This document shows positions 13,498-61,199 of a stretch of DNA of 64,000 nt, one piece after another. Source of the stretch: Pseudomonadota bacterium (lineage in GTDB: Bacteria; Pseudomonadota; Gammaproteobacteria; SURF-13); contig JBGFRC010000001.1 in the NCBI GenBank assembly GCA_041695325.1, forward strand, positions 7,686-71,685, in the 5' to 3' direction. Positions within the stretch are counted from its first letter, which is position 1, and every line of letters starts with the position of its first letter. The translations under genes were made by a program, and so were the position numbers. The notes beneath the pieces were generated by a model, which did no database searches, had not been told where the DNA came from, and worked only from the letters and a program-made list of their open reading frames with translations.

Positions 13498-13980
13498 CTA
13501 ATTTGATGATTGTGGCTGCCAGCCCGCCATGGTACGCAGTATTTCCTCGCCTCGCGCCGTTTTTGCATTTAAATTCAATGACCTACCTTTGTTGACCCAG
13601 GCTAGTGCCAGTGCAATATCCGGCTCCGGCAGCACGCCCTCGCCCCGCTCCGGCCATTCGAGCAGGCAGATGGCACGGGGAGCAAAATAGTCTTCCAGCC
13701 CCATGGCCGTCAATTCGGATGGGGAATTAATTCTATATAAATCAAAATGGTATATTGTTATATCGGCAAGCTCATAGGGCTCAACCAAGGTAAACGTCGG
13801 GCTCTTCACCGCGCCTTGATGCCCTAAAGCACGCAGCACACCACGCACCAGAGTGGTTTTGCCCGCGCCCAGTTCGCCGCTGAGATAAATCCTGTCTCCT
13901 GCGCGCAGTTGCTTGGCCAGCGCTGCGCCGAAGGCCAGCATCACGGCCTCGTCCGCTATCACATAGTGTGTTTCAGGCAC
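13498..13980 (-). CDS. tsaE: tRNA threonylcarbamoyladenosine biosynthesis ATPase TsaE
   Basis: LSGELGAGKTTLVRGVL...SPTFTLVEPY, the YjeE family. Confidence 0.9.
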   Translation of the reverse strand: MPETHYVIADEAVMLAFGAALAKQLRAGDRIYLSGELGAGKTTLVRGVLRALGHQGAVKSPTFTLVEPYELADITIYHFDLYRINSPSELTAMGLEDYFAPRAICLLEWPERGEGVLPEPDIALALAWVNKGRSLNLNAKTARGEEILRTMAGWQPQSSN

Positions 13981-15451
13981 GATTCACCAGCATGCGCAAA
14001 GGCGCGAACAAATCGCTCGCCAGCAGCCCGCGCTCGCCGCGCTGTGCCGCTTCGTCGCCCGCCTGCGCGTGCAGATGCACACCCAGCCGCGCGGCATCGG
14101 CCAGGGTGATGCCTTGCACGGTCAAGCCTGCAATGACGCCGGTCAACACGTCACCCACGCCTGCGCTCGCCATGCTGGGATTGCCCGCGGTACACACGCT
14201 GACCGCTCCATCTCCAGCGGCAATCAACGTGCCCGCGCCTTTCAGCACTGCGACGCCGCCGTACTGCGCACGCAGTTGCCGCACGGCGTAATAACGATCA
14301 CGCTGAATCACGCTGCCCGCGCAATTCAGTAAACGCCCCGCTTCCCCGGGATGCGGCGTCAATATCCAGTCAGCCCGCGTTTGCGGGTGCTGCGCGAGCA
14401 GATTGAGCGCGTCGGCATCCACCACCAAGGGCAAAGAAGTCCGCAACACGGCGTTGAACAACTCGACCGCCCAAGGCGACAGGCCGAGGCCGGGGCCGAT
14501 GGCAACCGCGTCCACCTTTTCCAGCAAGAGCTGCAACTGCTCCGCGTTCTCCACCCCATGACACAACAGCTCCGGGCGCTGAGCGCAGAGTGCCGAGGCA
14601 TGCGATGTGCGCGTGGCGACATAAACCAATCCGGCCCCGGCGCGCGCCGCGGCCTCGCCCGCGAGACGCGCTGCGCCCGCCATGCCGTGATCGCCGCCGA
14701 TCACCAGCACGCGCCCGTAATCGCCTTTGTGCGAGTCGCGCGCGCGCAGCTTGAGCCGCGGTAAATTCTCTGCCGCGAGTCTTACCGCGGCAGGCGTGGC
14801 GCGCTGAACGATCTCCTGCGGCACGCCTAAATCATCCAGCACGATCTTGCCGCAATGATCCGGCGCCGCGCCGGTGAACAAACCCTGCTTGAGGGCGAGA
14901 AAACTGACGGTGACGCTCGCGCGCACCGCCGCACCGTGCACCGCGCCGGTGTCCGCATCCAGGCCGGAAGGAACATCGAGCGCCAGCACGTGCTTGTGCG
15001 CATGATTAATCGCCCTGATCGCTTCGCGCCACGCGCCACTCACCTCCCGATCCAGCCCGATGCCAAACAGCGCATCCACAATCAGCTCGGCGTCTTTGAG
15101 CCGCACCGCGGAAAACGGCGTTACTTCTACGCCCGCCGCGCGCAATGCCTCATACGCCGCCTGCGCATCCCCGCGCAGCGCGCCCTCCTCCCCCGCCTGC
15201 AATACGCACAGCTCCAGCCCGGCCTCATGCGCCAGCCGCGCCGTCACAAACCCATCGCCGCCGTTATTCCCCGTGCCGCACACCAAGACGATGCGCCGTG
15301 CCTTGGGCCAATGCGCGCGCAGCGTCTCAAACGCTGCACGCCCTGCGCGCTCCATCAGCATCGCGCCCGGAATGCCGTATTCCTCGATGGCGATACGATC
15401 AAACTCCCGCACTTGCGCGGCGCGGTATAAGTTGACAGGAAGATCAGACAT
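13973..15451 (-). CDS. nnr: bifunctional NAD(P)H-hydrate repair enzyme (epimerase/dehydratase)
   Basis: 492-aa fused YjeF-N/YjeF-C domains; 8-nt overlap with tsaE. Confidence 0.9.
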   Translation of the reverse strand: MSDLPVNLYRAAQVREFDRIAIEEYGIPGAMLMERAGRAAFETLRAHWPKARRIVLVCGTGNNGGDGFVTARLAHEAGLELCVLQAGEEGALRGDAQAAYEALRAAGVEVTPFSAVRLKDAELIVDALFGIGLDREVSGAWREAIRAINHAHKHVLALDVPSGLDADTGAVHGAAVRASVTVSFLALKQGLFTGAAPDHCGKIVLDDLGVPQEIVQRATPAAVRLAAENLPRLKLRARDSHKGDYGRVLVIGGDHGMAGAARLAGEAAARAGAGLVYVATRTSHASALCAQRPELLCHGVENAEQLQLLLEKVDAVAIGPGLGLSPWAVELFNAVLRTSLPLVVDADALNLLAQHPQTRADWILTPHPGEAGRLLNCAGSVIQRDRYYAVRQLRAQYGGVAVLKGAGTLIAAGDGAVSVCTAGNPSMASAGVGDVLTGVIAGLTVQGITLADAARLGVHLHAQAGDEAAQRGERGLLASDLFAPLRMLVNRA

Positions 15452-15485
15452 GCAAGCTATGTTAAAAGATGCCGCCTGTTCGTAC

Positions 15486-15723
15486 TAGCAGTTCGTTGAA
15501 AAACGAACTGCTAAGCGCCACAGGGGTGAGCCATGCCGGTGGCATGGCGAACGGACGCACAGGACGTGCGCCCTGGACTTTTCCGCGGAGCCGGGACGGC
15601 GCAGCGGAAAAGTGCCGCATCGAAAATCAAACACACAAGTGTTTGATTTTCGGAGCGAGGCGCGGACATGTGCCGCGCCAAGTGAGTTGAAAATCGCCAA
15701 GGATGGCGATTTTCAACAAACTG
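15486..15723 (+). repeat. ~240-bp multi-hairpin intergenic repeat element, copy A
   Basis: About 95% identical to the reverse complement of 59923-60162. It contains the nested palindromes gcagttcgTTGAAAAAcgaactgc, gccatgccggtggcatggc, cttttccgc..gcggaaaag, cgaaaatcaaacacACAAgtgtttgattttcg and gttgaaaatcgcca..tggcgattttcaac. Confidence 0.8.
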
Positions 15724-15964
15724 CTGGCAAAACTTCTTGTCGCAGTTGCGCACTTAAAATAAACGGATGTATCCTTTATGTTATGAGCATACCCGTTGAA
15801 AAAAATTACCGAGGCTATCTTATCGTTGCCAAGTGATGCGCGAGCGTTGCTGGCAGAAAGAACGCCAGTCCGGTCCCAGAAATCCGGCTATTGGCATGCT
15901 CGCACAGAGGCCGGGGCTTAACAAGTGAAGCATGTGGACACGAATAACGTCCCCACCCATCTTT

Positions 15965-16507
15965 TCAGGATTTAAGCTTCGCGTTGTAACGCTCGCGGAA
16001 TTTTTTGAGTTTGGGGGCAATGACCATCTGGCAGTACGGTTGATTGCCGTTTCTGGCGTAGTAATCCTGGTGATAGTCTTCGGCGCGGTAAAACGCGCTG
16101 AACGGTGCAAGCTCGGTAACGATCGGGCCGGGCCAGATCCGCGTTGCGCTGATTTCCTGAATCACCTGTCCGGCAACCCGTTTTTGCTCGGGCGTGTGAT
16201 AAAAAATCACTGAGCGGTATTGGGTGCCGGCGTCATTGCCCTGGCGGTTGAGCGTGGTGGGGTCATGGACGGAGAAGAATATCTCCAGCAATTCCCGATA
16301 GCTGATAACGCCGGGGTCGAACGTGACTTGCACCACCTCGGCGTGGCCGGTGTTGCCGGTACAGACTTCACGATAGGAAGGATTTTTTATCTCGCCGCCG
16401 GAGTAGCCGGATTCGACTTTGGACACGCCTTTGAGGGCGGCGAACAGCGGCTCCAGACACCAGAAGCAGCCGCCGCCCAGGGTTGCAAGCTCCGCGTTCG
16501 CAGGCAT
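15965..16507 (-). CDS. msrA: peptide-methionine (S)-S-oxide reductase
   Basis: [20 protein letters not shown]..., the active-site GCFWC motif. Start placed at the internal Met, 180 aa. Confidence 0.9.
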   Translation of the reverse strand: MPANAELATLGGGCFWCLEPLFAALKGVSKVESGYSGGEIKNPSYREVCTGNTGHAEVVQVTFDPGVISYRELLEIFFSVHDPTTLNRQGNDAGTQYRSVIFYHTPEQKRVAGQVIQEISATRIWPGPIVTELAPFSAFYRAEDYHQDYYARNGNQPYCQMVIAPKLKKFRERYNAKLKS

Positions 16508-18519: not shown

Positions 18520-20220
18520 ATGCGCACCTCACAGCTATTACTGCCCACACTCAAGGAAACACCCTCCGACGCCGAAGTCATCAGTCATCAGTTGATGCTG
18601 CGTGCGGGCATGATCCGCAAACTCGCCGCTGGCATCTATAACTGGCTGCCCCTCGGCCTGCGCGTGCTGCGCAAGGTGGAGGCCGTTGTGCGCGAGGAAA
18701 TGAGCCGCGCCGGCGCGCAAGAGCTGCTGATGCCCGCGGTGCAGCCCGCCGAGCTGTGGCAGGAATCCGGGCGCTGGGGGCAATACGGCCCTGAACTGTT
18801 GCGCCTGCAAGACCGTCACCAACGCGACTTCTGCTTCGGCCCGACGCACGAGGAGGTCATCACCGATCTGGTGCGCAACGAAATCCGCAGTTATAAACAA
18901 CTGCCTGCGATCTTTTACCAGATCCAAACCAAATTCCGCGACGAACCGCGCCCGCGGTTCGGCGTGATGCGCGCGCGCGAATTCCTGATGAAGGATGCGT
19001 ATTCATTTCACGCTGATAAAGCCAGCCTGGAAAAAACCTATCAGGTGATGCATGACGTCTATACCCGCATCTTCACCCGTCTTGGGTTAAGATTCCGCGC
19101 CGTGTACGCCGACACCGGCGCCATCGGCGGCACCGGTTCGCAGGAGTTCCACGTGCTCGCCGACTCCGGCGAAGACGCCGTCGCGTTTTGCCCGGATTCG
19201 GACTACGCCGCCAACGTGGAACTAGCCGAGGCCGTCGCGCCCGCGGGCAAGCGCCCTGCCCCACAACAGACGATGCAAATCGTGGACACGCCGGGCAAAC
19301 ACAGCATCGAAGAAGTCAGCGGCTTTTTAAAAATGGATCCCGCCCAGTGTCTGAAGACGCTGCTGGTGCAGGGCAAGGAAGGCGTCGTCGCGCTGGTGTT
19401 GCGCGGCGATCACGAATTGAACACGGTAAAAGCGGCCAAGCTGACGCAGGTTTTCGCCCCGCTGACACTGGCCACCCCGCAGCAGGTTCAGGACGCGGCC
19501 GGCTGCGCGCCGGGATCGGTGGGCCCGGTGGGGCTAAAGATTCCCGTCATCGCCGACCGCGCCGCCGCGCACGCAAGCGACTTTGTGTGCGGCGCAAATC
19601 AGGACGGCAGGCATTTCACCGGCGTCAACTGGAGCCGCGATCTGCCGGAGCCGCTGGTCGCGGACATCCGCAACGTCGTGCAAGGCGACCCTTCCCCCGA
19701 CGGCCAAGGCACGCTGTCCATCGCGCGCGGCATCGAGGTCGGCCACATTTTCCAGCTTGGCGGTAAATACTCCAGCGCCATGGGCGCGAGCTATCTCGAC
19801 GAAAACGGGCAATCGCAAATCATGGAGATGGGCTGCTACGGCATCGGCGTATCGCGCGTGGTGGCCGCCGCCATCGAACAGAACCACGACGCACGCGGTA
19901 TCATCTGGCCTGTGCCCCTTGCGCCGTTTCACGTCGCGCTGCTGCCGATGAACATGCACAAGTCGCCGCGCGTGCAGGAAACGGCGGAGAAACTCTATAC
20001 AGAATTAACACACGCCGGGATTGAGGTGTTATTCGATGATCGCCCCTTGCGCGCGGGCGTGATGTTCGCCGACATGGAGCTGATCGGCATCCCCCATCGC
20101 ATCGTCGTCGGCGAACGCGGCCTCGACGCCGGAACGGTGGAATATCAGAACCGTCGCGACGCGCAAAGCCGGAATGTACCGCTTGCTGAAATCACCGGCC
20201 TTCTGAAAGCGCGCTTATAA
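18520..20220 (+). CDS. proS: proline--tRNA ligase
   Basis: 566-aa class II aaRS with an editing domain and full-length ProRS similarity. Confidence 0.95.
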
Positions 20221-20532
20221 GCCGCTCTCCCTCCAGTCGGCCAGAAACTGCTCCAGGCCGAGGGTAGTGAGCGGGAGCCTGACCGTCACATTGGGCGCAA
20301 TCCTGGCCAGTTCGCGGCCCTGCTTGAGCATGCCTTCATAATCCATCGCAACGACCTCGGCGCTGACCGGGCCTTGCACCATCTCGCAGATCATCGCAAT
20401 CTGCTTATGAAAGCTGATACCGGTTTCCTTGGCTAGCAGCGATGGATTGGTGGTCACACCGTCGGCCATGCCCAACTCCACGGCTTTGCGTATATCCTCA
20501 AGATGTCCCGTGTCTATGGGGTAGCCATCCAA
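20215..20532 (-). pseudogene. internally deleted, start-less copy of the transaldolase/fructose-6-phosphate aldolase gene (paralog of 26240-26890)
   Basis: Its translation matches residues ~5-77 of the intact copy fused directly to the last 16 residues (…VRLPLT|[16 protein letters not shown]). The junction lies at the microhomology cccgctcac. There is no ATG at the 5' end, where the sequence diverges from the intact gene. Confidence 0.8.
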
Positions 20533-20574
20533 ACATCATGCCCAATCTCTGAAGGAGGTCATATGCCGAAGAAC

Positions 20575-20625
20575 CAAGCCTGGCACTGGTTTTCGGGAAA
20601 TTAACGCTCACAACTACCCACACGA
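20575..20625. repeat. 50-bp junction motif, copy 1 (ttcgggaaattaacgctcacaactacccacacgacttccagaagagcc)
   Basis: Near-identical to 26080-26130. Both copies lie between a tal-derived segment and IS630-like remnant sequence. Confidence 0.6.
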
Positions 20626-20673
20626 CTTCCAGAAGAGCCCCAAAATCTATATTCGCGCATTTTTGAGGATCAT

Positions 20674-21947: not shown

Positions 21948-22136
21948 GATGGAAATTTTAGCACATGGAGTCGGATCGGGCCGTCGGAAGCGGGGGCCCC
22001 TACCAGGATGTTGATAAATGCCGCATGACACCGTTTTCTTGGCGCAGTGACCGCGCTGTTCTCCTGGGGATGGCATTGTCCCTATGACCTCCCTTAAGGG
22101 GAGTGGTTCGAGGACTTTATCAACACCCTGCTACCT

Positions 22137-22515: not shown

Positions 22516-23370
22516 ATGAGCGCAGTCGCGGTTTCAGGCAGCGGCCCGCAGGGACTCGGGCCGGGGATCGGGCTGCGCGCGCCGCACTATCGCGCTTTCC
22601 TCGAGGCGCGCCAGCCTGTTGGCTGGGTCGAGGTCCACAGCGAGAACTACTTCGGGCAGGGCGGCTACCACCGGCACGTGCTCGAACGCGTGCGCGCCGA
22701 TTACGCCGTCAGCCTGCACGGGGTCGGGCTCGGCATCGGCTCCGCGGAGGGCTACCGCGAGCGCCACCTGAGGCGGCTGCGCTCGCTCGCGCGGTGGATC
22801 GAGCCGGTTTTCGTCTCCGAGCACTTGTGCTGGGGGGCGGCGTCCGGCCGGCACTTCAACGACCTGCTGCCGCTCGCCTACGGCCGGGAGGCGCTTGCAC
22901 TAGTGAGCGCGCGCGTCGAGCGCGCGCAGGAACTCCTCGGCCGGCGCCTGCTGATCGAGAACGTCACGGCGTATCTCGAGTTCGCCGGGCAGGAGATGGC
23001 CGAGGCCGAATTCATCGCCGAACTCGCGCACCGCACGGGCTGCGGCGTGCTGCTCGACGTGAACAACCTGTACGTGAATCAGCTTAACCACGGCGGCGAT
23101 GCGCTCGCTGCCCTGCGCACGCTCCCCGCGGGCTGCGTCGAGGAGATCCACCTTGCCGGCCATCTGGTCACCGAGGACTGCGTGATTGACCACCACGGCG
23201 CTCGCGTCGCCGAGCCCGTGTGGCGGCTCTACAAGGCCGCCCTCGAGCGCTTCGGTCCGGTCCCGACGCTGATCGAATGGGATACCGACATCCCGGAGCT
23301 TGCGGTGCTGCTCGATGAGGCCGCGCGCGCCGGCCGGTGCATGGGGGAACGCCTTGGCCTCGCTGCTTGA
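22516..23370 (+). CDS. DUF692 / MNIO-family (multinuclear non-heme iron oxidative) enzyme (BufB-like)
   Basis: 284 aa, TIM-barrel DUF692 signature ...VEVHSENYF..., [14 protein letters not shown]. Immediately follows the precursor gene. Confidence 0.85.
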
Positions 23371-25773: not shown

Positions 25774-26075
25774 TCACGCCGCAAGAGGCAAAGGCGAGGG
25801 CTCGGCCGCGAACTTTCTGAGCAGCCGCGTGAGATCATCGCGCGTGAATCGCCAGTCAAACGGCGTGGCCATGCTCTCCAAGTGGTCCTGGAAGCGCAGC
25901 AATCGATCTGCGACCTCCGAAAGGCAGGAGAAGTCGTTGGGGGTAAGCGCCTTGCGCTGGACGATGGAGAAATAGATCTCGATCTGGTTGAGCCAATTGG
26001 TGTGAACCGGACCGTGAACGAGGACCAAGTTCGGGTAGGCCTGGGTCAGGCGTCGCACGCAGGGCTGGCCGCCTG
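25774..26075 (-). mobile_element. IS630-family transposase gene remnant (C-terminal ~100 codons only)
   Basis: Translation ...NLVLVHGPVHTNWLNQIEIYFSIVQRKALTPNDFSCLSEVADRLLRFQDHLESMATPFDWRFTRDDL matches the C-terminus of DDE_3/IS630 transposases. The frame is closed by a stop immediately upstream, so the N-terminal ~240 codons are missing. Confidence 0.7.
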
Positions 26076-26079
26076 GCGC

Positions 26080-26130
26080 GTGTTTCCGGGAAATTAACGC
26101 TCAAAACTACCCACACGACTTCCAGAAGAG
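26080..26130. repeat. 50-bp junction motif, copy 2
   Basis: ttccgggaaattaacgctcaaaactacccacacgacttccagaagagcc. It is followed at 26137-26215 by a second copy of the tal 5' region, including ATGAAATTT and then a stop. Confidence 0.6.
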
Positions 26131-26239
26131 CCTAAGAAATTTCATCACCACCTCCTGCCTTCAGGCATGACACCGTCAAGTTTCATGCCCAAAGCCAAAT
26201 GATGTTAGAATTTCGCGTTCGTTATGTATAAAAGCATGC

Positions 26240-26890
26240 TTATAAGCCGCTCTTCTTCCAGTCGGCCAGGAACTGCTCCAGGCCGAGGGTGGTGAGCGGG
26301 TGTTGGTACATCTGCTCCAGCACCTTGAACGGCAGGGTGGTGACGTGCGCGCCGATGCGCGCGGCTTCGATTACGTGGGTGACGTGGCGGATAGAGGCCA
26401 CCAGCACCTGTGTCTTCCATTCGTAATTGCGGTAAATGTCCACGATTTCCCCGATGAGCTTCATGCCGTGCTCGCCGACGTCATCCATTCTGCCCACAAA
26501 GGGTGACACAAACGCCGCTCCCGCCTTGGCGGCGAGGATGGCCTGCGCGGCGGAAAAGCACAAGGTGGCGTTGACCATCACACCCTCCTTGCTCAACACC
26601 GAGCAGGCGCGCATGCCGTCAGGCGTGAGCGGGAGTTTGACCGCGACGTTGGGCGCGATTTTGGCCAGCTCGCGGCCTTGTTTCAACATCCCCTCGTAAT
26701 CCGTTGCCACCACTTCAGCGCTGACCGGGCCTTGCACCATCTCGCAGATCATCGCAATCTGCTTATGAAAGCTGATACCGGTTTCCTTGGCTAGCAGCGA
26801 TGGATTGGTGGTCACACCGTCAGCCATGCCCAGTTCCACGGCCTTGCGAATATCCTCCAGATGTCCCGTGTCTATAAAAAATTTCATCAC
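26240..26890 (-). CDS. fructose-6-phosphate aldolase / transaldolase (TalC/Fsa subfamily)
   Basis: 216 aa MMKFFIDTGHLEDIRKAVELGMADGVTTNPSLL..., the short transaldolase family. Intact paralog of the pseudogene at 20215-20532. Confidence 0.9.
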   Translation of the reverse strand: MMKFFIDTGHLEDIRKAVELGMADGVTTNPSLLAKETGISFHKQIAMICEMVQGPVSAEVVATDYEGMLKQGRELAKIAPNVAVKLPLTPDGMRACSVLSKEGVMVNATLCFSAAQAILAAKAGAAFVSPFVGRMDDVGEHGMKLIGEIVDIYRNYEWKTQVLVASIRHVTHVIEAARIGAHVTTLPFKVLEQMYQHPLTTLGLEQFLADWKKSGL

Positions 26891-26982
26891 CGCCCCCTGC
26901 CTCCAGGCGTTACACAGTCAAGCTTCATGCTTAAAGCCAAATGATGTTAGAATTCCGCGTTTGTCAGCGCCATGGAGTATGC

Positions 26983-35070: not shown

Positions 35071-36189
35071 ATGGAACGCTGTGACGCAGCCATCATAGGC
35101 GGCGGGCCGGGCGGCTCCAGCGCGGCGTGGAAGCTCAAACGCGCGGGTCTCGAGGTCGTGGTGCTGGACAAAAAAACCTTCCCGCGCGACAAGGTGTGCG
35201 CGGGCTGGATCACGCCCAAGGTGGTGGACGCGCTGGAGCTCGATCTGGATGATTATCGCGCAAGCCGCGTGTTGCAAGCCTTCACCGGCTTTCGCACCGG
35301 CTGTCTGGGACAGGACCAGGTTGAAACGACCTACGGCGAGCCGGTGAGTTACGGCATACGCCGCTGCGAATTCGACCACTATCTGCTGCAGCGCTCAGGC
35401 GCGCGGCTCAGGCTCGGCGAGGCGTTGCAATCACTGCGGCGCGAGAACGGCGAATGGATCATCAACGAATCATTGCGCGCGCCGTTGCTGATCGGCGCGG
35501 GCGGGCACTTTTGTCCGGTGGCGCGCCGCCTGGGCGCCAGGCTGGGCGGCACCGAATCCGTGGTCGCCGCGCAGGAAGTTGAGTTCGCCATGAACGAGCG
35601 CCAGATGCAAGAGTGCCGCGTGGCGCAGGAAACGCCGGAATTATTTTTCTGCTCCGACCTCAAGGGCTACGGCTGGGCGGTGCGCAAGGGAAATTATCTC
35701 AATATCGGCCTGGGGCGCGAGGACAATCACAAACTGGCCGCGCACGTGGAAGCGTTTTGCGCGCTCCTTAAGCAACGGGGCAAGATTCCGCACGACATCC
35801 CGGCCCATTTCAACGGCCATGCCTATCTGCTGTACGCGCACACGCCCAGAAAAATCGTCGCGGACGGCGCGCTGCTCATCGGCGACGCCGCCGGGCTGGC
35901 CTACCCGCAGAGCGGCGAAGGCATACTACCCGCGATCGAATCCGCCCTGCTGGCCGCGGACGTCATCCTCGCCGCTCACGGCGACTACCGCTGCGACCAG
36001 TTGACGCCTTATGAAGAAAGGCTCGCGGCGCGCTTTGGCGCGCGCAAGGCCAAGACTCATGCCGGTGTCGTGGTCGAGAAGCTGAAGCAGGTGATGGGAC
36101 GCAGGCTCCTCGCCACACGCTGGTTCTCGCGTCACATCGTGCTGGAGCGGTGGTTCTTGCACAGCCATCTCCCCCCGCTTTACCCCTAG
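35071..36189 (+). CDS. FAD-dependent oxidoreductase (geranylgeranyl reductase family)
   Basis: Rossmann motif AAIIGGGPGGSSAA at the N-terminus; ~370 aa. Confidence 0.75.
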   Translation: MERCDAAIIGGGPGGSSAAWKLKRAGLEVVVLDKKTFPRDKVCAGWITPKVVDALELDLDDYRASRVLQAFTGFRTGCLGQDQVETTYGEPVSYGIRRCEFDHYLLQRSGARLRLGEALQSLRRENGEWIINESLRAPLLIGAGGHFCPVARRLGARLGGTESVVAAQEVEFAMNERQMQECRVAQETPELFFCSDLKGYGWAVRKGNYLNIGLGREDNHKLAAHVEAFCALLKQRGKIPHDIPAHFNGHAYLLYAHTPRKIVADGALLIGDAAGLAYPQSGEGILPAIESALLAADVILAAHGDYRCDQLTPYEERLAARFGARKAKTHAGVVVEKLKQVMGRRLLATRWFSRHIVLERWFLHSHLPPLYP

Positions 36190-36200
36190 CAGGTTGTTTC

Positions 36201-36239
36201 GCAAAGCGAAAAGTGTCATTTTCGCTTTGCTTCGTTTTT
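36201..36239 (+). terminator. rho-independent terminator (perfect 12-bp stem, 6-nt loop, T-run)
   Basis: gcaaagcgaaaa-gtgtca-ttttcgctttgc followed by ttcgttttt, 12 nt after the stop of the oxidoreductase gene. Confidence 0.6.
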
Positions 36240-36411
36240 CAAGCACATAAAGCGTGCTTGAAAAATGGCGGTGCCTGCGGCGCTCTCGCATCCTGCTTCG
36301 CTTGCAAGGCCAGGGCAAGCCATCCTTGGCTTGCCCGCTCGCAGCAGTGCTGCTCGCCCCTGCAACGCACGCAGGCTGTTTCTCAACAGCCTGCTAGCAG
36401 GCAGTTCGACG

Positions 36412-40362: not shown

Positions 40363-40533
40363 GGCATATCTCCCTTTAAAGTAGGGCTTAAGGAACCTCT
40401 GATTAAGTCAGAAGTTCCTTGCGGTGCAGGGACGCACTGCCATTTTTCAAACACAAAGTGTTTGAAAAATGGAGACCAGGATGGACTTATTCAGAGCTTC
40501 ATATAAGATACCTCAAGCGCTCCTCGAACGGGT

Positions 40534-50724: not shown

Positions 50725-51728
50725 TGCAAGACACCCACATCAGCCTCGCGCACGGCAACGGCGGGCGCTGCATGCGCGAGCTCATCGAACGCCTGTTCGC
50801 GCATCACCTGGCCAATCCGCTGCTCGACATTGACGCCGATGCCGTGCCGCTGCCGATGCCGGAGGGCGAGATCATGCTCACCACGGACGGTTTCACCGTG
50901 CAGCCGCTGGAGTTTCCCGGCGGCGACATCGGGGCGCTCGCCGTACACGGCACGGTGAACGACCTCGCGGTGGCTGGCGCGACGCCGCTCTATCTCACCC
51001 TCAACGCGTTGATTGAGGAAGGCCTGGAAGTCGCCCAGCTCCGGCGCATCATCGCCAGCCTCGCGCGCAGCGCGCGGGAAACCGGCGTGCGCGTGGTGGC
51101 GGGCGACACCAAGGTCGTGCCGCGTGGCGCGGGCGGCGGTCTGTACCTTTCCGCCAGCGGCGTGGGTGCGCGCGCGCCTGGCGTACAGTTGGGCATAACG
51201 CAGATCAGGGAGGGTGATGCGATACTGGTCAGCGGGCCGGTGGGCGATCACGCCGTGGCCGTGCTGCTCGCACGCGAACAATTCGGCCTGCGCGGAAACA
51301 TATACTCCGACATGGCCTGCGTGCTGCCGCTCACCCGCGCCCTGCTCGCCTTTGCCGGTCTGCGCTTCATGCGCGATCCCACGCGCGGCGGACTCGCCAC
51401 CGTGCTGCACGAAATTTGCCGTGCAACCAATCTGGGCGTGCATCTTGAAGAAGCCGCCATACCCATCAGGCCCGCCGTGCGCTCGGTATGTGACATGCTC
51501 GGCTATGACCCGCTCTATCTCGCCTGCGAAGGCCGCGTAGTCGCGGTGATTGCACCCGATCAGGCGCAAGCGGCGCTCGCAGTCTGGCGCACCGCGCCGC
51601 TGGGCGACCAGGCCGCCATCATCGGACACATGACAGGCAACCCGGCGCGTGTAATCCTGGAAACCTACATCGGCGGCAGACGCATACTGGAAGAACTGGA
51701 AGACGACCCCCTGCCGCGTATCTGCTGA
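50724..51728 (+). CDS. hypE: hydrogenase expression/formation protein HypE
   Basis: AIR-synthase-like fold ending ...DDPLPRIC with the conserved C-terminal Cys; 334 aa. Confidence 0.95.
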   Translation: MQDTHISLAHGNGGRCMRELIERLFAHHLANPLLDIDADAVPLPMPEGEIMLTTDGFTVQPLEFPGGDIGALAVHGTVNDLAVAGATPLYLTLNALIEEGLEVAQLRRIIASLARSARETGVRVVAGDTKVVPRGAGGGLYLSASGVGARAPGVQLGITQIREGDAILVSGPVGDHAVAVLLAREQFGLRGNIYSDMACVLPLTRALLAFAGLRFMRDPTRGGLATVLHEICRATNLGVHLEEAAIPIRPAVRSVCDMLGYDPLYLACEGRVVAVIAPDQAQAALAVWRTAPLGDQAAIIGHMTGNPARVILETYIGGRRILEELEDDPLPRIC

Positions 51729-51897
51729 CAACACGCCTGGACCCCGGTCATCGAATCCAGGGTCGAACGGGCATCCCTTGTGACGGGACTTTCCTATTTG
51801 TCGAAAAAAAGGTATTATTTCGACACATTATTCCGATCTGTCGATGCGATCAACAGGTTCTGCGGACGTGTCGAACCACGAGATACTTGATAAACAA

Positions 51898-55390: not shown

Positions 55391-55412
55391 AACGAGACAG
55401 CAAAGACACCCC

Positions 55413-55507
55413 TGGATTGCTTCGCGGCCTTCGGCCGTTCGCAATGACGGCGACGGCGGGTGCAACCTATCGTCATTGCGAGCGCCCACAGGGCGCGAAG
55501 CAATCCA
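55413..55507. repeat. nested palindromic ~95-bp element, left flank of the GIY-YIG gene
   Basis: Outer arms tggattgcttcgcg / cgcgaagcaatcca and inner arms cgcaatgacg / cgtcattgcg. A second copy lies at 55839-55942. Confidence 0.7.
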
Positions 55508-55548
55508 GTAGTCAATGAGTATTGGCAACACGAAATCCTCCAGAGCCC

Positions 55549-55836
55549 ATGAAACAACCCTGCGTCTACATCATGGCAAACAAACGAAACGGCACGTTAT
55601 ATACGGGCGTTACGTCAAACCTTGTACAACGCGTCCACCAACACAAGGAAGGGGTGGTGGAGGGGTTTACCAGCAAGTACGACTGCAAAATGCTTGTCTG
55701 GTACGAGCCGCACGAAACGATGGAAAGCGCCATCCAGCGGGAGAAACAGATCAAAGGGGGAAGTCGTGCAAAAAAGCTGGCGCGGATTGAGGCCGCAAAT
55801 CCAGCATGGCGGGATTTGTATGGCGACATCGTATAG
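55549..55836 (+). CDS. GIY-YIG nuclease family protein (UPF0213/COG2827 type)
   Basis: MKQPCVYIMANKRNGTLYTGVTSNLVQRVHQHKEG...EREKQIKG..., the GIY-YIG motif; ~95 aa. Confidence 0.85.
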   Translation: MKQPCVYIMANKRNGTLYTGVTSNLVQRVHQHKEGVVEGFTSKYDCKMLVWYEPHETMESAIQREKQIKGGSRAKKLARIEAANPAWRDLYGDIV

Positions 55837-55838
55837 CC

Positions 55839-55942
55839 TGGATTGCTTCGCGCCCTTCGGTCGCTCGCAATGACGAGGCCGCATCAGCGGTGGCGTCATT
55901 GCGAGGAGGGCGGAGCCCGACGAAGCAATCCAGAATCAGCCC
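55839..55942. repeat. nested palindromic ~100-bp element, right flank of the GIY-YIG gene
   Basis: Same arms as 55413-55507 (tggattgcttcgcg...cgcaatgacg...cgtcattgcg...cgaagcaatcca). Begins 2 nt after the GIY-YIG stop. Confidence 0.7.
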
Positions 55943-55995: not shown

Positions 55996-57546
55996 ATGCC
56001 ACGTAACAGGAAGACAAAGGCGGACAAGCCGCTCACCACCGCCCAATCGCTCGGCAGCCTGCTCAAGTCCGCGCGCGACATTATGCGCAAGGACAAGGGC
56101 CTGAACGGCGATCTCGACCGCCTGCCGATGCTCACCTGGATCATGTTCCTCAAGTTTCTGGACGACTTGGAGCTTCAGCGGGAGGAAGAGGCGAAGCTAG
56201 CGGGTACCCGGTTCAAGGCCGCTGTCGAAAAACCGTATCGCTGGCGCGACTGGGGCGCGAAGCCGGACGGCATCACCGGCGACGAGCTGCTCGCCTTCAT
56301 CAATCAGGATAAGAGTCGCCGCCCTGACGGCAGCAGGGGACCGGGTCTGTTCGCCTATCTGCGCGGTCTGACCAGCTCCAACGGCGACAACCGCCGCGAC
56401 GTGATCGCGACCGTATTCAAAGGCGTGGATAACCGCATGAAGAGCGGTTACCTGCTGCGCGACGTTATCAACAAGGTCAACGGCATCCATTTCACGGCCA
56501 GCGACGAACTGCACACGCTCGGCTCGCTCTACGAATCCATGCTGCGCGAGATGCGCGACGCCGCGGGCGACTCCGGCGAGTTCTATACACCGCGTCCGGT
56601 GGTGCGCTTCATGGTCGAGGCGGTCAATCCTCGGCTCGACGAAACCGTGCTCGACCCGGCTTGCGGCACCGGTGGCTTTCTGGTCGAGGCGTTCAATCAC
56701 CTGAGCCAACAGGTGGAAACTGTCGCCGGCCGCAAACTGCTTCAGGGCAGGTCTCTTTATGGTTTTGAGCCCAAGCCGCTGCCGTATCTGCTCGCACAGA
56801 TGAACCTGTTATTGCACGGCCTCGATGCCCCGCAGATTGACCCCGGCAACGCGCTGCGCTTCAAGCTCACCGAGATCGGCGAGAAGAACCGCGTGTACGT
56901 GATCCTTACCAACCCGCCCTTCGGCGGAGAGGAGGAAAAGGGTATTCAGGACAACTTCCCCGAGAATCGGCAGACCGCCGAAACTGCACTGCTGTTTCTT
57001 CAGCTCATTATGCGCCGGCTGCATCGTGCGCCGGGGAAATCCGGCTATGCCCGTGCGGCGGTGGTCGTACCCAACGGCACGCTTTTCGGCGACGGTGTCT
57101 GCGCCCGCATCAAGGAAGAACTGCTCAAGGATTTCAACCTGCACACCATCGTGCGCCTGCCGAACGGCGTATTCGCGCCGTACACGAGCATCCCGACCAA
57201 CATCCTGTTCTTCGACCGTTCCGGCCCGACGAAAGACGTGTGGTACTACGAGCAACCCTTGCCCGAGGGTCGTAAGAACTACACCAAAACCCAGGCGATT
57301 CAGTTTGAGGAATTCAAACCTTGCCTTGAATGGTGGAAGAAGCGCGAGGAAAACGATCGCGCCTGGAAGGTGAGCGCCGAAGAATTGCTCGCTAACAACT
57401 GCAACCTCGACCGCAAGAACCCACGCGGCAAGGTGGACTTCGAGCACCTGCCACCGGAACAGCTCGCCGATGACATCCTGAAGAAGGAACAGCGTATCGC
57501 CGAGATCATGACTGAAATCAAGACTATGTTGGCGCAGAAGGTGTGA
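55996..57546 (+). CDS. hsdM: type I restriction-modification N6-adenine DNA methyltransferase subunit M
   Basis: NPPFGG catalytic motif and HsdM N-terminal domain; 516 aa. Confidence 0.95.
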   Translation: MPRNRKTKADKPLTTAQSLGSLLKSARDIMRKDKGLNGDLDRLPMLTWIMFLKFLDDLELQREEEAKLAGTRFKAAVEKPYRWRDWGAKPDGITGDELLAFINQDKSRRPDGSRGPGLFAYLRGLTSSNGDNRRDVIATVFKGVDNRMKSGYLLRDVINKVNGIHFTASDELHTLGSLYESMLREMRDAAGDSGEFYTPRPVVRFMVEAVNPRLDETVLDPACGTGGFLVEAFNHLSQQVETVAGRKLLQGRSLYGFEPKPLPYLLAQMNLLLHGLDAPQIDPGNALRFKLTEIGEKNRVYVILTNPPFGGEEEKGIQDNFPENRQTAETALLFLQLIMRRLHRAPGKSGYARAAVVVPNGTLFGDGVCARIKEELLKDFNLHTIVRLPNGVFAPYTSIPTNILFFDRSGPTKDVWYYEQPLPEGRKNYTKTQAIQFEEFKPCLEWWKKREENDRAWKVSAEELLANNCNLDRKNPRGKVDFEHLPPEQLADDILKKEQRIAEIMTEIKTMLAQKV

Positions 57547-57548
57547 GA

Positions 57549-58721
57549 ATGGCGTGGCCGAATGTGACGCTAAGAGAAGTTTTGACGCCGATCGAACGTC
57601 CTGAGTCACCGCTGCCAGGCACGGCCTACCGCCAGCTCGGAGTAAAGCTGTGGGGCGAAGGCGCTTATGAGCGCGAGACCATTGACGGCGCTGCCACGAA
57701 ATACTCGACGCTTTCCCGCATAGAAGCAGATGACGTTGTGGTCAACAAGATTTGGGCACGCAGCGGCAGCGTCGCGGTAGTGCAGTTTCCGCTTGCTGGA
57801 TGCTACGTCAGCGGAGAATTTCCGACGTTCACTGTGAATCCCGCGAAGTTGTCGCCGCGCTGGATGCATTGGCTGACCAAGACGCCGAACTTCTGGTTGC
57901 AGTGCGACGAGAAGTCACGGGGCACAAGTGGAAAGAACCGCATCAAGCCTGAGCAGTTCCTGAGTGTCGAAATCCCCCTGCCGCCGCTGGCCGAACAGCG
58001 GCGCATCGTGGCGCGCATCGAAGCCCTGTCAGCCAAAATCGCCGAAGTCCGCTCCTTTCGCCAAGAGAGTGTGGAGGAAGGAGAGCGTTTGCTCATTTGT
58101 ATGGCCCATAGACGTGACCTAGACGACAACGCAAAGCAGCGCTCTGGATGGCGTCGCCTTAAACTTCGTGAGTGCATTCAGCTCGTTGACGACTCATGCA
58201 GTGTAGAGGCCGATAAGAGCTATCCAAATCTTGGTATCTACAGTTTTGGCCGAGGGCTTTTTCACAAACCCCCGATCGAGGGCATTTCAACCGCGGCCAA
58301 AACATTGCGGCGCGTGCATCGGGGGCAGTTTATCTACAGTCGCCTGTTCGCATTTGAGGGTGCCTACGGTATGGTGTCCGATGAATTCGATAGGCATTTT
58401 GTCTCCGGTGAGTATCCAACGTTCGAATGCAAGCGGGACTTGATTCGTGCGGAATTTCTGGCCGCATATTTCAGGTCAGCAGAGGTGTGGAGGAGCGTGG
58501 CTATAGGTAGTAAGGGCTTGGGCGATCGTCGCCAGCGCGTACAACCGGACCAAGTGCTCGGTTCAGATATCTGGCTGCCGCCAATTGCTTTACAAAATCA
58601 GCTTGCTGAGTCCCAGGCCAAGGTCGATGCGCTCAAACACCTACAGTCCGAATCCGCCGCCGAACTCGATGCCATGCTGCCCGCCATCCTCGACTGCGCG
58701 CTTAAGGGAGAACTGTCATGA
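57549..58721 (+). CDS. hsdS: type I restriction-modification specificity subunit S
   Basis: Two target-recognition domains separated by conserved helical spacers; start overlaps the hsdM stop. Confidence 0.85.
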   Translation: MAWPNVTLREVLTPIERPESPLPGTAYRQLGVKLWGEGAYERETIDGAATKYSTLSRIEADDVVVNKIWARSGSVAVVQFPLAGCYVSGEFPTFTVNPAKLSPRWMHWLTKTPNFWLQCDEKSRGTSGKNRIKPEQFLSVEIPLPPLAEQRRIVARIEALSAKIAEVRSFRQESVEEGERLLICMAHRRDLDDNAKQRSGWRRLKLRECIQLVDDSCSVEADKSYPNLGIYSFGRGLFHKPPIEGISTAAKTLRRVHRGQFIYSRLFAFEGAYGMVSDEFDRHFVSGEYPTFECKRDLIRAEFLAAYFRSAEVWRSVAIGSKGLGDRRQRVQPDQVLGSDIWLPPIALQNQLAESQAKVDALKHLQSESAAELDAMLPAILDCALKGELS

Positions 58722-58879: not shown

Positions 58880-59056
58880 GTACGACAAAGGACCGCAAGC
58901 GGCGCTCGCTGTCTGGCGCGCCCTGCCGCTGGGCCAACAAGCCGCCATCATCGGGCGCGTGACGGCACCCCGCCGCGCGCAACCCTGGAAACCCCCATCG
59001 GCGGCAGACGCACCCTGGAAGAACTGGAAGATGACCCCCTGCCGCGCATTTGCTAA
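58880..59056 (+). pseudogene. degenerate, frameshifted duplicate of the hypE 3' end
   Basis: About 85% nucleotide identity to 51565-51731. It encodes ...QAALAVWRALPLGQQAAIIG... then, after a 1-nt frameshift, ...IGGRRTLEELEDDPLPRIC-stop, mirroring the HypE C-terminus. Confidence 0.7.
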
Positions 59057-59122
59057 AAACCTTACATACAAGGCCCGTATCAATATCCCGCTCGATTATT
59101 CTTCGCGCTTTAGGTATCCCGC

Positions 59123-59896
59123 ATGTTCTGGAGTTTAAAATCCTGGCGGCGTCGCCGTATTTTGAAGCGCCGCTCGTTACCGGATGGTATATGGCGGCGC
59201 GTGCTGGAGCGGCTTGTCTTTCTGCAAGACTTGACTCAAGAGGAGCTTGGCCGGTTGCGCGCTTGGGTTGTGCTGTTTTTGCATGATAAGAAATTCAGTA
59301 CGGCGGGCGGACTGGCGCTCACCGACGAAATGCGCGTGATGATTGCGGCGCAGGCCTGTATTCTGATTCTGAATCTCGACCTTGACTATTACGACGACTG
59401 GGTGGAAATCATCGTCTACCCGGATGAATTTATTCCCGATCATGAATACGAGGACGAAACGGGCGTCGTGCATCGTGTGCACGATCCGCTCAGCGGTGAA
59501 TCGTGGCCTCATGGGCCGGTCATTCTGTCGTGGGCGGACGCCGCCGGCCGCGGGGCGGCACCGGGCTATAGCGTGGTGATACACGAATTCGCCCACAAGC
59601 TCGATATGCGCAACGGCGAGGCCAATGGCTTTCCGCAGTTACATGCGGAGATGAGCCGGCCGGCCTGGAGCGCTGCATTCGGCGCGGCTTACGCCGATTT
59701 TTGCATGAAGGTGGATGCAGGCGATGAGACGGAGATTGACCCCTACGCCGCGGAAAGTCCGGCGGAGTTCTTCGCGGTCGTGAGTGAAGCATTCTTCACC
59801 ATCCCGCACAGCGTGCAGCAAATGTATCCGGCGGTTTACCGGCAATTGGCGCTCTTTTACCGCCAAGATACTCTGGCGAGGCGCGGCAACCAATAA
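59123..59896 (+). CDS. mtfA: M90-family zinc metallopeptidase (MtfA-like)
   Basis: HEFAHKLD zinc motif and MtfA-like length (257 aa). Confidence 0.8.
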   Translation: MFWSLKSWRRRRILKRRSLPDGIWRRVLERLVFLQDLTQEELGRLRAWVVLFLHDKKFSTAGGLALTDEMRVMIAAQACILILNLDLDYYDDWVEIIVYPDEFIPDHEYEDETGVVHRVHDPLSGESWPHGPVILSWADAAGRGAAPGYSVVIHEFAHKLDMRNGEANGFPQLHAEMSRPAWSAAFGAAYADFCMKVDAGDETEIDPYAAESPAEFFAVVSEAFFTIPHSVQQMYPAVYRQLALFYRQDTLARRGNQ

Positions 59897-59922
59897 ACGA
59901 ATGAGGCCAGCCAGCCGTACTA

Positions 59923-60162
59923 CCAGTTTGTTGAAAAAGGCCGTCCTGGCCTTTTTCAACTCGCTTCGGCGCGGCACATGTCCGCGCCTCGCTCCGAAAA
60001 TCAAACACTTGCGTGTTTGATTTTCGATGCGGCACTTTTCCGCTGCGCCGTCCCGGCTCCGCGGAAAAGTCCAGGGCGCACGTCCTGTGCGCCCGTTCGC
60101 CATGCCACCGGCATGGCTCACCCCTGTGGCGCCTGGCAGTTCGTTTTTCAACGAACCGCTAC
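59923..60162 (-). repeat. ~240-bp multi-hairpin intergenic repeat element, copy B (inverted relative to copy A)
   Basis: Its reverse complement aligns at about 95% identity with 15486-15723, including all internal palindromes. Confidence 0.8.
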
Positions 60163-61199
60163 TCTTCGCGCGCTCCGACCATACGGCGTGCCGCCAGGGT
60201 CACGGCTTCGGCGTTGGGGATGGAGGCGGCCTCCAGAGCGCCGTTGTAGGGCGTGGGCACGTCCGCGCCCGCGGCGCGCGCGATGGGCGCATCGAGTTCA
60301 TAAAACGCCGCCTCTTGCAGCGCCGCCACGATCTCCGCCCCGGCGCCGGCGAATTTGCAGTCCTCTTCCACCACGATGGCGCGGTGGGTCTTTTTGAGGG
60401 AGGCGACGAGCAACGGCAAATCTATGGGCTTCAAGCTTCTCAAATCAATCACCTCCGCTGAAATGTCGTCTTCGCTGGCGAGCACGTCGGCGGCCTGCAG
60501 GCACACATCCACCATGCGATGCCAGGCGATGAGGGTGACGTGCGCGCCCGCGCGGCGCACGGCGGCGCTGTGCAGGGGCGGGGCTTCGGCGTGAACGTTG
60601 AATGGGTCTTTCTTGAAATAGAGCAGCTCATGCTCCAGCACGATGATGGGATCGTCTTCGCGTATGGCTTGGGTCAACTGCCAGTAGGAATCCTGCGCCG
60701 TGCCGGGCGCCACGATGCGCAGTCCCGGCACGTTCATCAGGGTGTGCTCCAGGCGCTGCGAGTGCTGGGCGGCGAGTTGTCTCGCGACGCCGCCGGGCAT
60801 GCGCACCACCAGCGGCACGCGCAGTTTTCCGCCAGACATGTAGCGCAGCTTGGCGGCCATGTTGATGATGGCGTCCAGGGCGAGCAGCGCGAAGTTGACG
60901 GTCATGATCTCGATCACCGGGCGCCCGCCCACCAGCGCCGCGCCCACGCCGAGGCCGGTAAAGCTGTTTTCCGAGATCGGGGTGTCGCGCACGCGCCATT
61001 CACCGTACTTGGCGTATAGGCCCTGCGTCACGCGATAGCTGCCGCCGTACAGGCCGACGTCCTCGCCCATGATGAACACCGCCTCGTCCGCGGCCAAGGC
61101 CTGATCGAGCGCGATGTTGAGCGCCTCCCACACCATGAGCTCGGAGCGCGCCTTGGCGGGCGCGATGAGACCGGCGCTTTCCTGAGCGGCGTGTTTCAC
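60159..61199 (-). CDS. 2-oxoacid (pyruvate/acetoin) dehydrogenase E1 component beta subunit
   Basis: Transketolase-like pyrimidine-binding and C-terminal domains; ATGA-coupled to the upstream alpha subunit gene. Confidence 0.9.
   Translation of the reverse strand: MKHAAQESAGLIAPAKARSELMVWEALNIALDQALAADEAVFIMGEDVGLYGGSYRVTQGLYAKYGEWRVRDTPISENSFTGLGVGAALVGGRPVIEIMTVNFALLALDAIINMAAKLRYMSGGKLRVPLVVRMPGGVARQLAAQHSQRLEHTLMNVPGLRIVAPGTAQDSYWQLTQAIREDDPIIVLEHELLYFKKDPFNVHAEAPPLHSAAVRRAGAHVTLIAWHRMVDVCLQAADVLASEDDISAEVIDLRSLKPIDLPLLVASLKKTHRAIVVEEDCKFAGAGAEIVAALQEAAFYELDAPIARAAGADVPTPYNGALEAASIPNAEAVTLAARRMVGAREE

Follow-up and report, generated by a model that had tools for sequence, protein, structure and literature searches.

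What is a strongly palindromic sequence of roughly 240 bp doing twice, in inverted orientation, on the same piece of DNA? This question is raised by a 64,000-nt stretch of contig JBGFRC010000001.1 from a gammaproteobacterial assembly (GCA_041695325.1; the whole stretch is referred to here as the window), in which two such copies, A and B, lie 44 kb apart. The pair might represent mobile elements, paralogous small RNA (sRNA) genes, repetitive extragenic palindromic (REP) sequences, or simply duplicated or integron-type DNA. [quoted passage not shown] The family is distinguished by its interior, which behaves like a selected RNA.

Copy A occupies 15489..15723 and copy B 59924..60158, each 235 bp in length and both of the long form of the element; the strand that carries GGA motifs (here referred to as the sense strand) is + for A and - for B. 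For comparison, loci from genomes, metagenome-assembled genomes (MAGs), and metagenome contigs were used, labelled L001-L096. A covariance model of the family, R1, which was built from 16 short forms, matches A with 152.8 bits (E 5e-50; model positions 1-152 with an 86-nt insertion) and B with 155 bits (E 1e-50), and the limits of A also follow from its alignment to B, those of B from an empty site in L094 (described below). A repeat search returned the inverted arms 15486-15679 / 59968-60161 (194 nt, 97%) and 15691-15723 / 59924-59956, and global alignment of the refined elements gave identity in 223/236 columns (94.5%). The first 191 nt of the two copies are 97.4% identical, and the remaining differences are mostly located in the last hairpin (h7), in which TCGCC/GGCGA of A corresponds to AGGCC/GGCCT of B, i.e., two compensatory double changes. 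At both ends of the element, the identity between A and B ends abruptly. Each copy forms seven local hairpins, and the minimum free energy (MFE) of -142 to -144 kcal/mol compares with -79 to -90 kcal/mol for dinucleotide shuffles (n=200), none of which folded as well (z = -11.4 to -13.4 on either strand).

Both copies are intergenic. Copy A is found between nnr (13973..15451, -) and msrA (15965..16507, -; Pfam PMSR), and copy B between the convergent mtfA (59123..59896, +; Peptidase_M90) and E1-beta (60159..61199, -) genes, directly 3' of the stop codon of the latter. An inverted pair of about 95% identity over about 240 bp, 44 kb apart, built from several palindromes and placed between nnr and msrA and between mtfA and E1-beta, was what the initial annotation of this DNA had described, and all of this is borne out. 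The same holds for its remark on artefactual open reading frames (ORFs), since spurious ORFs that are identical in A and B are present on both strands; element-derived ORFs have even entered public databases as 'hypothetical proteins', and three short entries of this kind, without a Pfam domain, were the only protein-database matches to the element translation. With a G+C content of 0.57-0.60, against ~0.61-0.62 in the surroundings, the element lacks the AT-richness that is a typical though non-obligatory trait of MITEs. A BLASTN search of copy A against 72,556 plasmids yielded no match. Logan short-read contigs of the same organism (L002:1-62, L003:2756-2812) end inside the element at both loci, which indicates that the repeat breaks assemblies.

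The ends of the element bear most directly on its origin. A and B terminate in 15-nt terminal inverted repeats (TIRs) of the form CAGTTYGTTGAAAA, which match at 13/15 positions in each of A and B and at 14/15 in element C, a further family member in the window that is introduced below. In copy A, the left TIR (15489..15503, +) reads CAGTTCGTTGAAAAA, and the right TIR (15709-15723; reverse complement CAGTTTGTTGAAAAT) is the inverted complement of these first 15 nt. The TIR pattern CAGNNNGTTGANAAAC has eight matches in the window versus 0.16 expected; one match, at 29495 inside a 509-aa ORF, was discarded as chance. Immediately outside the TIRs, GTAG stands on either side of copy B (left, 60159..60162, -; right, 59920-59923). 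The E1-beta gene uses the TAG of the left GTAG (60159-60161) as its stop codon, which the duplication leaves intact. Copy A is flanked by CTAG on the left (15485..15488) and CTGG on the right (15724-15727), a match at three of four positions that can be read as a decayed target-site duplication. In a census of delimited family members, 4-bp flanking direct repeats were perfect in 14/53 and matched at three of four positions in 16/53, whereas the next 4 nt outward, taken as a control, gave 0/53 and 2/53, respectively. The 14 perfect duplications (CTAG five times, GTAG and TTAG twice each, and ATAA, TTAA, CAAG, TTCG, and CTAC once each) are mostly NTAG, often a stop codon. Eight of them are non-palindromic (GTAG x2, TTAG x2, ATAA, CAAG, TTCG, and CTAC) and agree with a direct repeat more closely than with an inverted one, and they are thus direct repeats and not extensions of the TIRs. 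Delimiting the termini and looking for target duplications had been proposed initially as a check on the nature of the element, and the 15-nt TIRs and 4-bp duplications that were found favour a MITE. Two TIRs also occur back to back as a 35-bp solo palindrome (CAGGTTGCTGAAAAA ... TTTTTCAGCAACCTG) in L022:308-342, which may represent the element in minimal or collapsed form.

Relatives that lack the element complete this picture. In L094 (MAG GCA_030680605.1), which has an E1-beta homologue that is 83% identical and the same convergent mtfA, the site of B is empty and consists of GAGGAGTAG (with the E1-beta stop), 23 nt, and TTA (the mtfA stop). The window at this position reads GAAGAGTAG, 235 bp, a second GTAG, 23 nt, and TTA, so that the difference amounts to exactly 239 bp (235 + 4). 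For copy A, relatives keep the gene order folE-msrA-nnr-tsaE, and the msrA-nnr spacers of L095 and L096 (Nnr 84-85% identical) are 82 and 264 bp in length and without the element; towards nnr, homology picks up again precisely at the TAG that adjoins the end of A. A and B were inserted recently in this lineage.

Segmental duplication or gene conversion of ordinary intergenic DNA would have sufficed for a repeat of which the initial annotation knew two copies only, and integron attC sites are brought to mind by GTTGAAA / TTTCAAC, which on inspection resemble the core sites GTTRRRY / RYYYAAC at 6/7 positions. Both origins are excluded by the variable direct duplications and the exact empty site, and exact boundaries with duplicated targets and dozens of copies in unrelated contexts in many genomes also speak against them. 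Moreover, the core-like motifs run in the opposite order to those of attC sites (on both strands 5' GTTGAAA ... TTTCAAC 3'), a cassette array is absent, and no duplication results from attC recombination. This is the least credible of the explanations considered, with next to no weight.

Hardly more probable is an origin as REP or BIME (bacterial interspersed mosaic element) sequences or REPIN palindromes, spread by a REP-associated tyrosine transposase (RAYT; IS200/IS605-like Y1 transposase). Such repeats are likewise intergenic and highly palindromic with hairpins in a row, and a GTAG adjoins B. The element has, however, true TIRs, and its flanking 4-mers vary (ATAA, CAAG, TTCG, CTAC, etc.) and are direct duplications; HEARO/omega-RNA or other IS200/605-linked Rfam families were not matched, and no RAYT-like gene was noticed beside any copy, although no systematic RAYT search was made. 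To our knowledge, REPs make no target duplications, and the REP reading is unsupported for this reason; the census of variable direct duplications and the exact empty site exclude it. Of the initial suggestion of a MITE or REP-type repeat, the first half consequently stands (TIRs, 4-bp duplications, empty site, and dozens of relatives) and the second does not.

The defining features of prokaryotic MITEs include a length below ~500 bp, TIRs of ~4-30 bp, and flanking direct repeats (PMC10969869). A and B conform to this with 235 bp and no transposase gene, 15-nt TIRs, target duplications, an empty site, and dispersed copies. Transposition of the MITE into NTAG sites with a duplication of 4 bp is documented by the flanks, and mobilisation would be in trans, by a transposase whose gene is located elsewhere in the genome. 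The best guess is an IS5-type DDE transposase, because of the 4-bp YTAR-like target and the IS5-family-like ends. IS5 duplicates a 4-bp YTAR target (PMC5009759), and YTAR fits 8/14 perfect duplications of the family (CTAG x5, TTAG x2, and TTAA), the others being NTAR or looser. Published IS5-family ends (GAGACTGTTGCA and GAGACCTTTGCAAAA; PMC4596501) resemble the element end CAGGCTGTTGAAAAA, and the ends of Escherichia coli IS5, taken from NC_000913.3 (GGAAGGTGCGAATAAG), match the element ends at 9/15 positions.

Several observations count against the MITE reading or against its proposed mobilisation. The duplication at copy A is imperfect (CTAG/CTGG), and the msrA-side flank of A is too diverged to align with relatives. 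The similarity to IS5-family ends is partial (8/12 for ISPg4 and 10/15 for ISNme1, with ends from PMC4596501), a search for IS5 InsH-like ORFs in the 642 kb examined found none, and pairs of TIRs 0.7-2.5 kb apart, the sign of an autonomous element, were absent from the DNA examined.

An inverted pair at this spacing was also suggested, in the initial annotation, to be able to mediate an inversion of the intervening 44 kb. Neither synteny nor GC skew supports this. The gene order flanking A and B is the same as in element-free relatives, the GC skew is negative across both copies without a change of sign, and L001, a contig from a second sample, shows the same arrangement at A. With flanking orders as in relatives without the element and an unchanged skew, both junctions are ancestral and no inversion has been fixed; what is left of the suggestion is a possibility only.

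A and B form a genuine pair, yet they are not the sole copies, since the window also contains three diverged members (C, D, and E), which brings the total to five. Element C (22004..22130, 127 bp, +) has the TIRs CAGGATGTTGATAAA and CAGGGTGTTGATAAA and a CTAC/CTAC duplication (22000-22003, 22131-22134); it shares only its ends with A and B, differs in its interior, and lies upstream of an extracytoplasmic function (ECF) sigma-factor gene. Divergent from this gene, with C in between, a gene for an MbnB/TglH/ChrH-type enzyme that modifies precursors of ribosomally synthesized and post-translationally modified peptides (RiPPs) is located at 22516-23370 (+; Pfam E 9e-102). Element D (36190..36393, 204 bp, -) is diverged (R1 match 41 bits, E 2.6e-12) and is flanked by CTAG/CTAG at 36394-36397 and 36186-36189, the right duplication being the site of the TAG stop of a convergent oxidoreductase ORF (35071..36189, +); it retains h1, GGA hairpins (GGGCAAGCCAAGGAUGGCUUGCCC), and an h5-like hairpin, and is without h7. 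Element E (40394..40513, +) is a degenerate relative (R1 match 32.7 bits, E 1.6e-9) without recognisable TIRs, located upstream of a dksA/traR-type gene, with an h1-like palindrome, h2 (GCAGGGACGC), and an h5-like hairpin.

Beyond the window, a protein search with the element translation led to short relatives of ~150 bp (L004 and L005), one of which is located between fliP and fliQ. An exact scan for the h5 pattern in one genome per species (GTDB) gave 29 loci with 1-5 matches per genome, almost all in uncultured Gammaproteobacteria (Acidiferrobacterales, Halothiobacillaceae, Porticoccaceae, and unclassified), and this pattern undercounts the family, as it misses diverged members such as C-E. 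In the genome scan, L017 (Senegalimassilia) and L031 (Verrucomicrobiae) apparently matched the hairpin pattern by chance. Scanning metagenomes with the first hairpin contributed ~30 more loci, including long forms like A and B, and R1 gave 57 sense-strand matches of at least 47 bits in 55 sources, several loci having two copies. Members range from 127 to 460 bp in length, and short (~150 bp) and long forms are related by added hairpin modules. The family is widespread in uncultured sulfur-oxidiser-like Gammaproteobacteria. Copy number had also been proposed initially as a check, and the dozens of relatives speak for a MITE.

By crude gene calls, in 23/59 copies one end lies no more than 2 nt from the stop codon of a gene that reads toward the element. 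Outside stop codons, NTAG is seldom found in G+C-rich DNA, and together with selection against insertions into coding sequence this would make gene ends the usual landing site.

How the interior is built can be followed on copy A. Hairpin h1 (15489..15510, +) includes the left TIR and has a GNRA-type GAAA loop. In the loop of core hairpin h2, an 86-nt module (15526..15611, +) appears as an insertion relative to the short consensus in the cmsearch alignment; the R1 alignments of A and B thus define the long form as the short consensus (~150 bp) plus this module. Listed within it are h2b (15530-15548, +), h3 (15556-15570, +; loop AGGAC), and h4 (15578-15612, +). Downstream follow h5 (15621..15652, +), with a 14-bp A/U-rich stem, h6 (15659..15679, +), whose loop and stem top both carry GGAC, and h7 (15686..15717, +), which consists of an A-run, a G+C stem, the loop AAGGAU, and a T-run, and is both terminator-like and CsrA-site-like. 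In copy B, all on the - strand, the corresponding hairpins are h7 (59930..59960; loop AGGAC), h6 (59968-59988), h5 (59995-60026), h4 (60035-60069), h3 (60074-60094), h2b (60099-60117), and h1 (60137-60158). By inspection, the 86-nt module with covarying stems is also present in L036, L058, L072, and L076. A different module of ~45 nt (...GACGAACGAGCGAAGCGAGTAGGGCTAC...) is nested in either orientation in the h5 loop or h6 of L035, L042, L055-L059, and L066 (e.g., L058:6044-6396), and represents either a smaller element that entered the MITE or a hairpin module that can be exchanged.

RNAalifold analysis of a 16-sequence alignment resolved 51 pairs in five core hairpins (h1, h2, h5, h6, and h7), with 97.1% of the cells paired. 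Changes on both sides were found in 25/51 pairs, versus 10.9 +/- 1.9 after column shuffles and 3-8 when partners were slid by 1-3 columns. The loops are conserved in one motif: in h7, GGA occurs in 34/39 elements and TCC in none, with a variable preceding base (UGGA, GGGA, AGGA, and CGGA), and h2 has GGA in at least 25/39. Typical sites are CAUGGAUG, CAAGGAUG, and CACAGGGAUGUG, which fit the CsrA/RsmE consensus, (A/U)CANGGANG(U/A), and the motif RUACARGGAUGU obtained by systematic evolution of ligands by exponential enrichment (SELEX). The motif is confined largely to one strand, as inside delimited elements the sense:antisense ratio is 114:20 for GGA:TCC and 61:9 for AGGA/ARGGA, and the sense strands of A and B have 6-7 local GGA-loop hairpins, compared with none on the antisense strands. 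In addition, the paired cells of the sense strand contain 68 G-U against 37 A-C, counted in cells from related sequences that are not independent; this excess is suggestive, being what a folded GGA strand would lead one to expect. Compensatory changes, GGA loops on one strand, and more G-U than A-C pairs together make it appear that the interior, once co-transcribed with its neighbours, is under selection as a folded RNA. At L024:~1560-1660 and L036:~1403-1605, GGA-hairpin modules are reversed, with TCC loops on the sense strand, so that the strand asymmetry is not absolute.

Some relatives carry the GGA hairpin in much larger numbers. L011, L012, and L024, all from one Acidiferrobacterales MAG, contain tandem arrays with a period of 27/54 nt and have 9-10 local GGA-loop hairpins in 380-460 nt. 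Local hairpins were counted here since global MFE folding, in which the units of long arrays pair together, is unusable for counts of loop motifs. Their density of GGA hairpins is like the figure quoted for CsrB (PMC1488887). From the sequence features described above, the family can be viewed, tentatively and with rather less than even confidence, as a mobile CsrA/RsmA-binding module, in which the MITE would bear a payload of CsrA-type GGA hairpins.

A related explanation would dispense with mobility, in that A and B would be paralogous Csr/Rsm-type sRNA genes (CsrA sponges like CsrB/RsmY/RsmZ) with promoters of their own, duplicated in the ordinary way. GGA in the hairpin loops of one strand and a terminator-like last hairpin are features that such genes would share, and the 1-5 exact h5 matches per GTDB genome, a figure that undercounts the family, are similar to the copy number of Rsm sRNAs. 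Rfam 15 gave no family match at gathering score in the window or 14 loci. With permissive E values only weak CsrB-clan and microRNA (miRNA) noise appeared, and the only sensible sub-threshold matches belong to the CsrB clan at 20-23 bits (copy A, RsmW 20 against a cut-off of 52 and TwoAYGGAY 22 against 43; L011, RsmY 23 against 57), all of them far below gathering. A and B cease to be alike precisely where the inverted repeats end, and their alignment shows no shared sequence upstream of the two copies. No GacA/UvrY box (TGTAAGN6CTTACA, at most 2 mismatches) was detected within 300 nt upstream in any of 21 elements (0/21), and no sigma-70-like promoter was found. Target duplications, the exact empty site, and insertions in both orientations and inside an operon (fliP-fliQ) also count against this explanation, and the ARGGA density in the window is unexceptional. 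Under the five criteria for CsrA-regulating sRNAs of Kulkarni et al. 2006 (PMC1488887), A and B are intergenic and have GGA in loops, and have neither the motif density nor the conserved upstream site. Non-mobile sRNA genes are accordingly a very unlikely alternative, if a slightly better one than REP sequences.

For the MITE with a CsrA-binding payload, too, a number of findings are unfavourable. The GGA counts were taken from sequences that are related to one another, not from independent events. A and B have only 3 and 2 AGGA/ARGGA motifs per 235 nt, respectively, and are no outliers against background 240-nt windows (mean 1.1-1.25, maximum 6-7), and a concentration of the kind named by Kulkarni et al. 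is reached only by the long relatives L011 (13) and L012 (10). A simple scan for consensus promoters and terminators at A and B called none; h7 goes uncalled because its T-run becomes part of the extended stem, with just 4 T left after the G+C core stem in A and B. A phmmer search of the DNA examined revealed no csrA gene. Finally, by crude GC-position gene calls, 47 copies have the same orientation as the neighbouring genes and 37 the opposite one, i.e., there is no clear bias, and many copies would therefore be transcribed antisense.

In the proposed sequence of events, the MITE, once inserted at a gene end, would be co-transcribed with its neighbours and would add stable hairpins to 3' ends, with h7 acting as a terminator-like hairpin usable in both directions or as a 3'-end stabiliser. 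Sense transcripts may then offer binding sites for a CsrA/RsmA-type protein. Copy B would be transcribed in sense, as part of the 3' untranslated region (UTR) of the E1-beta gene or operon, and copy A in antisense within the msrA-nnr transcript; a further possibility is that the two transcripts, being ~95% complementary, might pair with each other.

As a MITE, the element is of an ordinary kind, yet it breaks short-read assemblies, seeds spurious 'hypothetical proteins' in databases, and, by landing on stop codons, probably alters the 3' ends of many transcripts in uncultured sulfur-oxidiser-like Gammaproteobacteria. Its distinctive trait is an interior that behaves like a selected RNA, with some copies having amplified the GGA hairpin to CsrB-like numbers. 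If CsrA binding holds true, a transposon would be spreading the binding sites of a global post-transcriptional regulator. An element landing in sense before or behind a gene would expose the transcript to CsrA or convert it into a CsrA sponge, and the amplified forms (L011, L012, and L024) would be CsrB-like sponge RNAs born from a transposon, which would provide a plausible route for the origin of Csr/Rsm sponges and for the recruitment of genes to the Csr regulon. The literature searched contained no paper linking CsrA with MITEs.

Other repeats are present in the window as well. A 39-nt motif, CCTGGATTGCTTCGCGGCCTTCGGCCGTTCGCAATGACG, belonging to a different short palindromic repeat family, occurs three times at 55411-55876, twice in direct and once in inverted orientation, and a similar motif occurs in the flank of L039. 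Several blocks of 62-264 nt with 87-92% identity and a partly rearranged order are shared by 20206-20639 and 26071-26964. A further ~170 bp at 86% identity link 51565-51732 and 58894-59060, over the 3' ends of two small ORFs, and the second of these copies adjoins a type I restriction-modification S-subunit-like gene (57543..58721).

Comparison with known systems places the element among MITEs and sets it apart by its interior. Like Correia/NEMIS of Neisseria, ERIC/IRU of enterobacteria, RUP, and MITEAba12, it is shorter than 500 bp, non-coding, and intergenic, with TIRs and short, decaying duplications; such elements are also co-transcribed as a stable structure, break short-read assemblies, and spawn spurious ORFs. 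Most MITEs, however, form one long hairpin from both ends with a drifting interior, have a TA target, and are AT-rich, whereas here a row of local hairpins shows compensatory changes and a loop motif that is conserved, insertion is into a 4-bp NTAG target, and the G+C content is 0.57-0.60 in a window of 0.62. BOX and SPRITE of Streptococcus pneumoniae are similarly modular, with variable internal modules, terminator-like hairpins, and nested elements, but their host phylum and sequence are unrelated and they are not known to have the GGA-loop motif or the stop-codon preference. REP/BIME and REPIN sequences are comparable in being intergenic, palindromic, multi-copy, and possibly transcript-stabilising, but they are tied to RAYT genes and are not known to make target duplications, whereas direct duplications of variable sequence are the rule here.

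The review from which the defining features of MITEs were taken also names BOX and SPRITE (PMC10969869). With the BrickBuilt MITE of Porphyromonas gingivalis and IS5-family elements (PMC4596501; IS5 target in PMC5009759), the present family shares IS5-family-like ends (xAGxCxxTTGxAAAA), a tandemly expanded interior in some copies (period 27/54 nt in L011), and a 4-bp YTAR-like target as for IS5; its ends are similar only in part, a search for an autonomous IS with such ends brought up none, and the expanded units are GGA-loop hairpins instead of a plain minisatellite. Counterparts of the interior are CsrB, CsrC, and RsmX/Y/Z/W (Rfam clan CL00106; PMC1488887), which likewise consist of a row of hairpins with GGA (often CANGGANG) loops and a final hairpin with a U-run. 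L011, L012, and L024 reach a CsrB-like motif density, whereas A and B have only 2-3 AGGA/ARGGA motifs; and where the members of this clan have an upstream activating sequence, a promoter, and Rfam membership, the element has inverted-repeat ends, target duplications, and insertion in either orientation.

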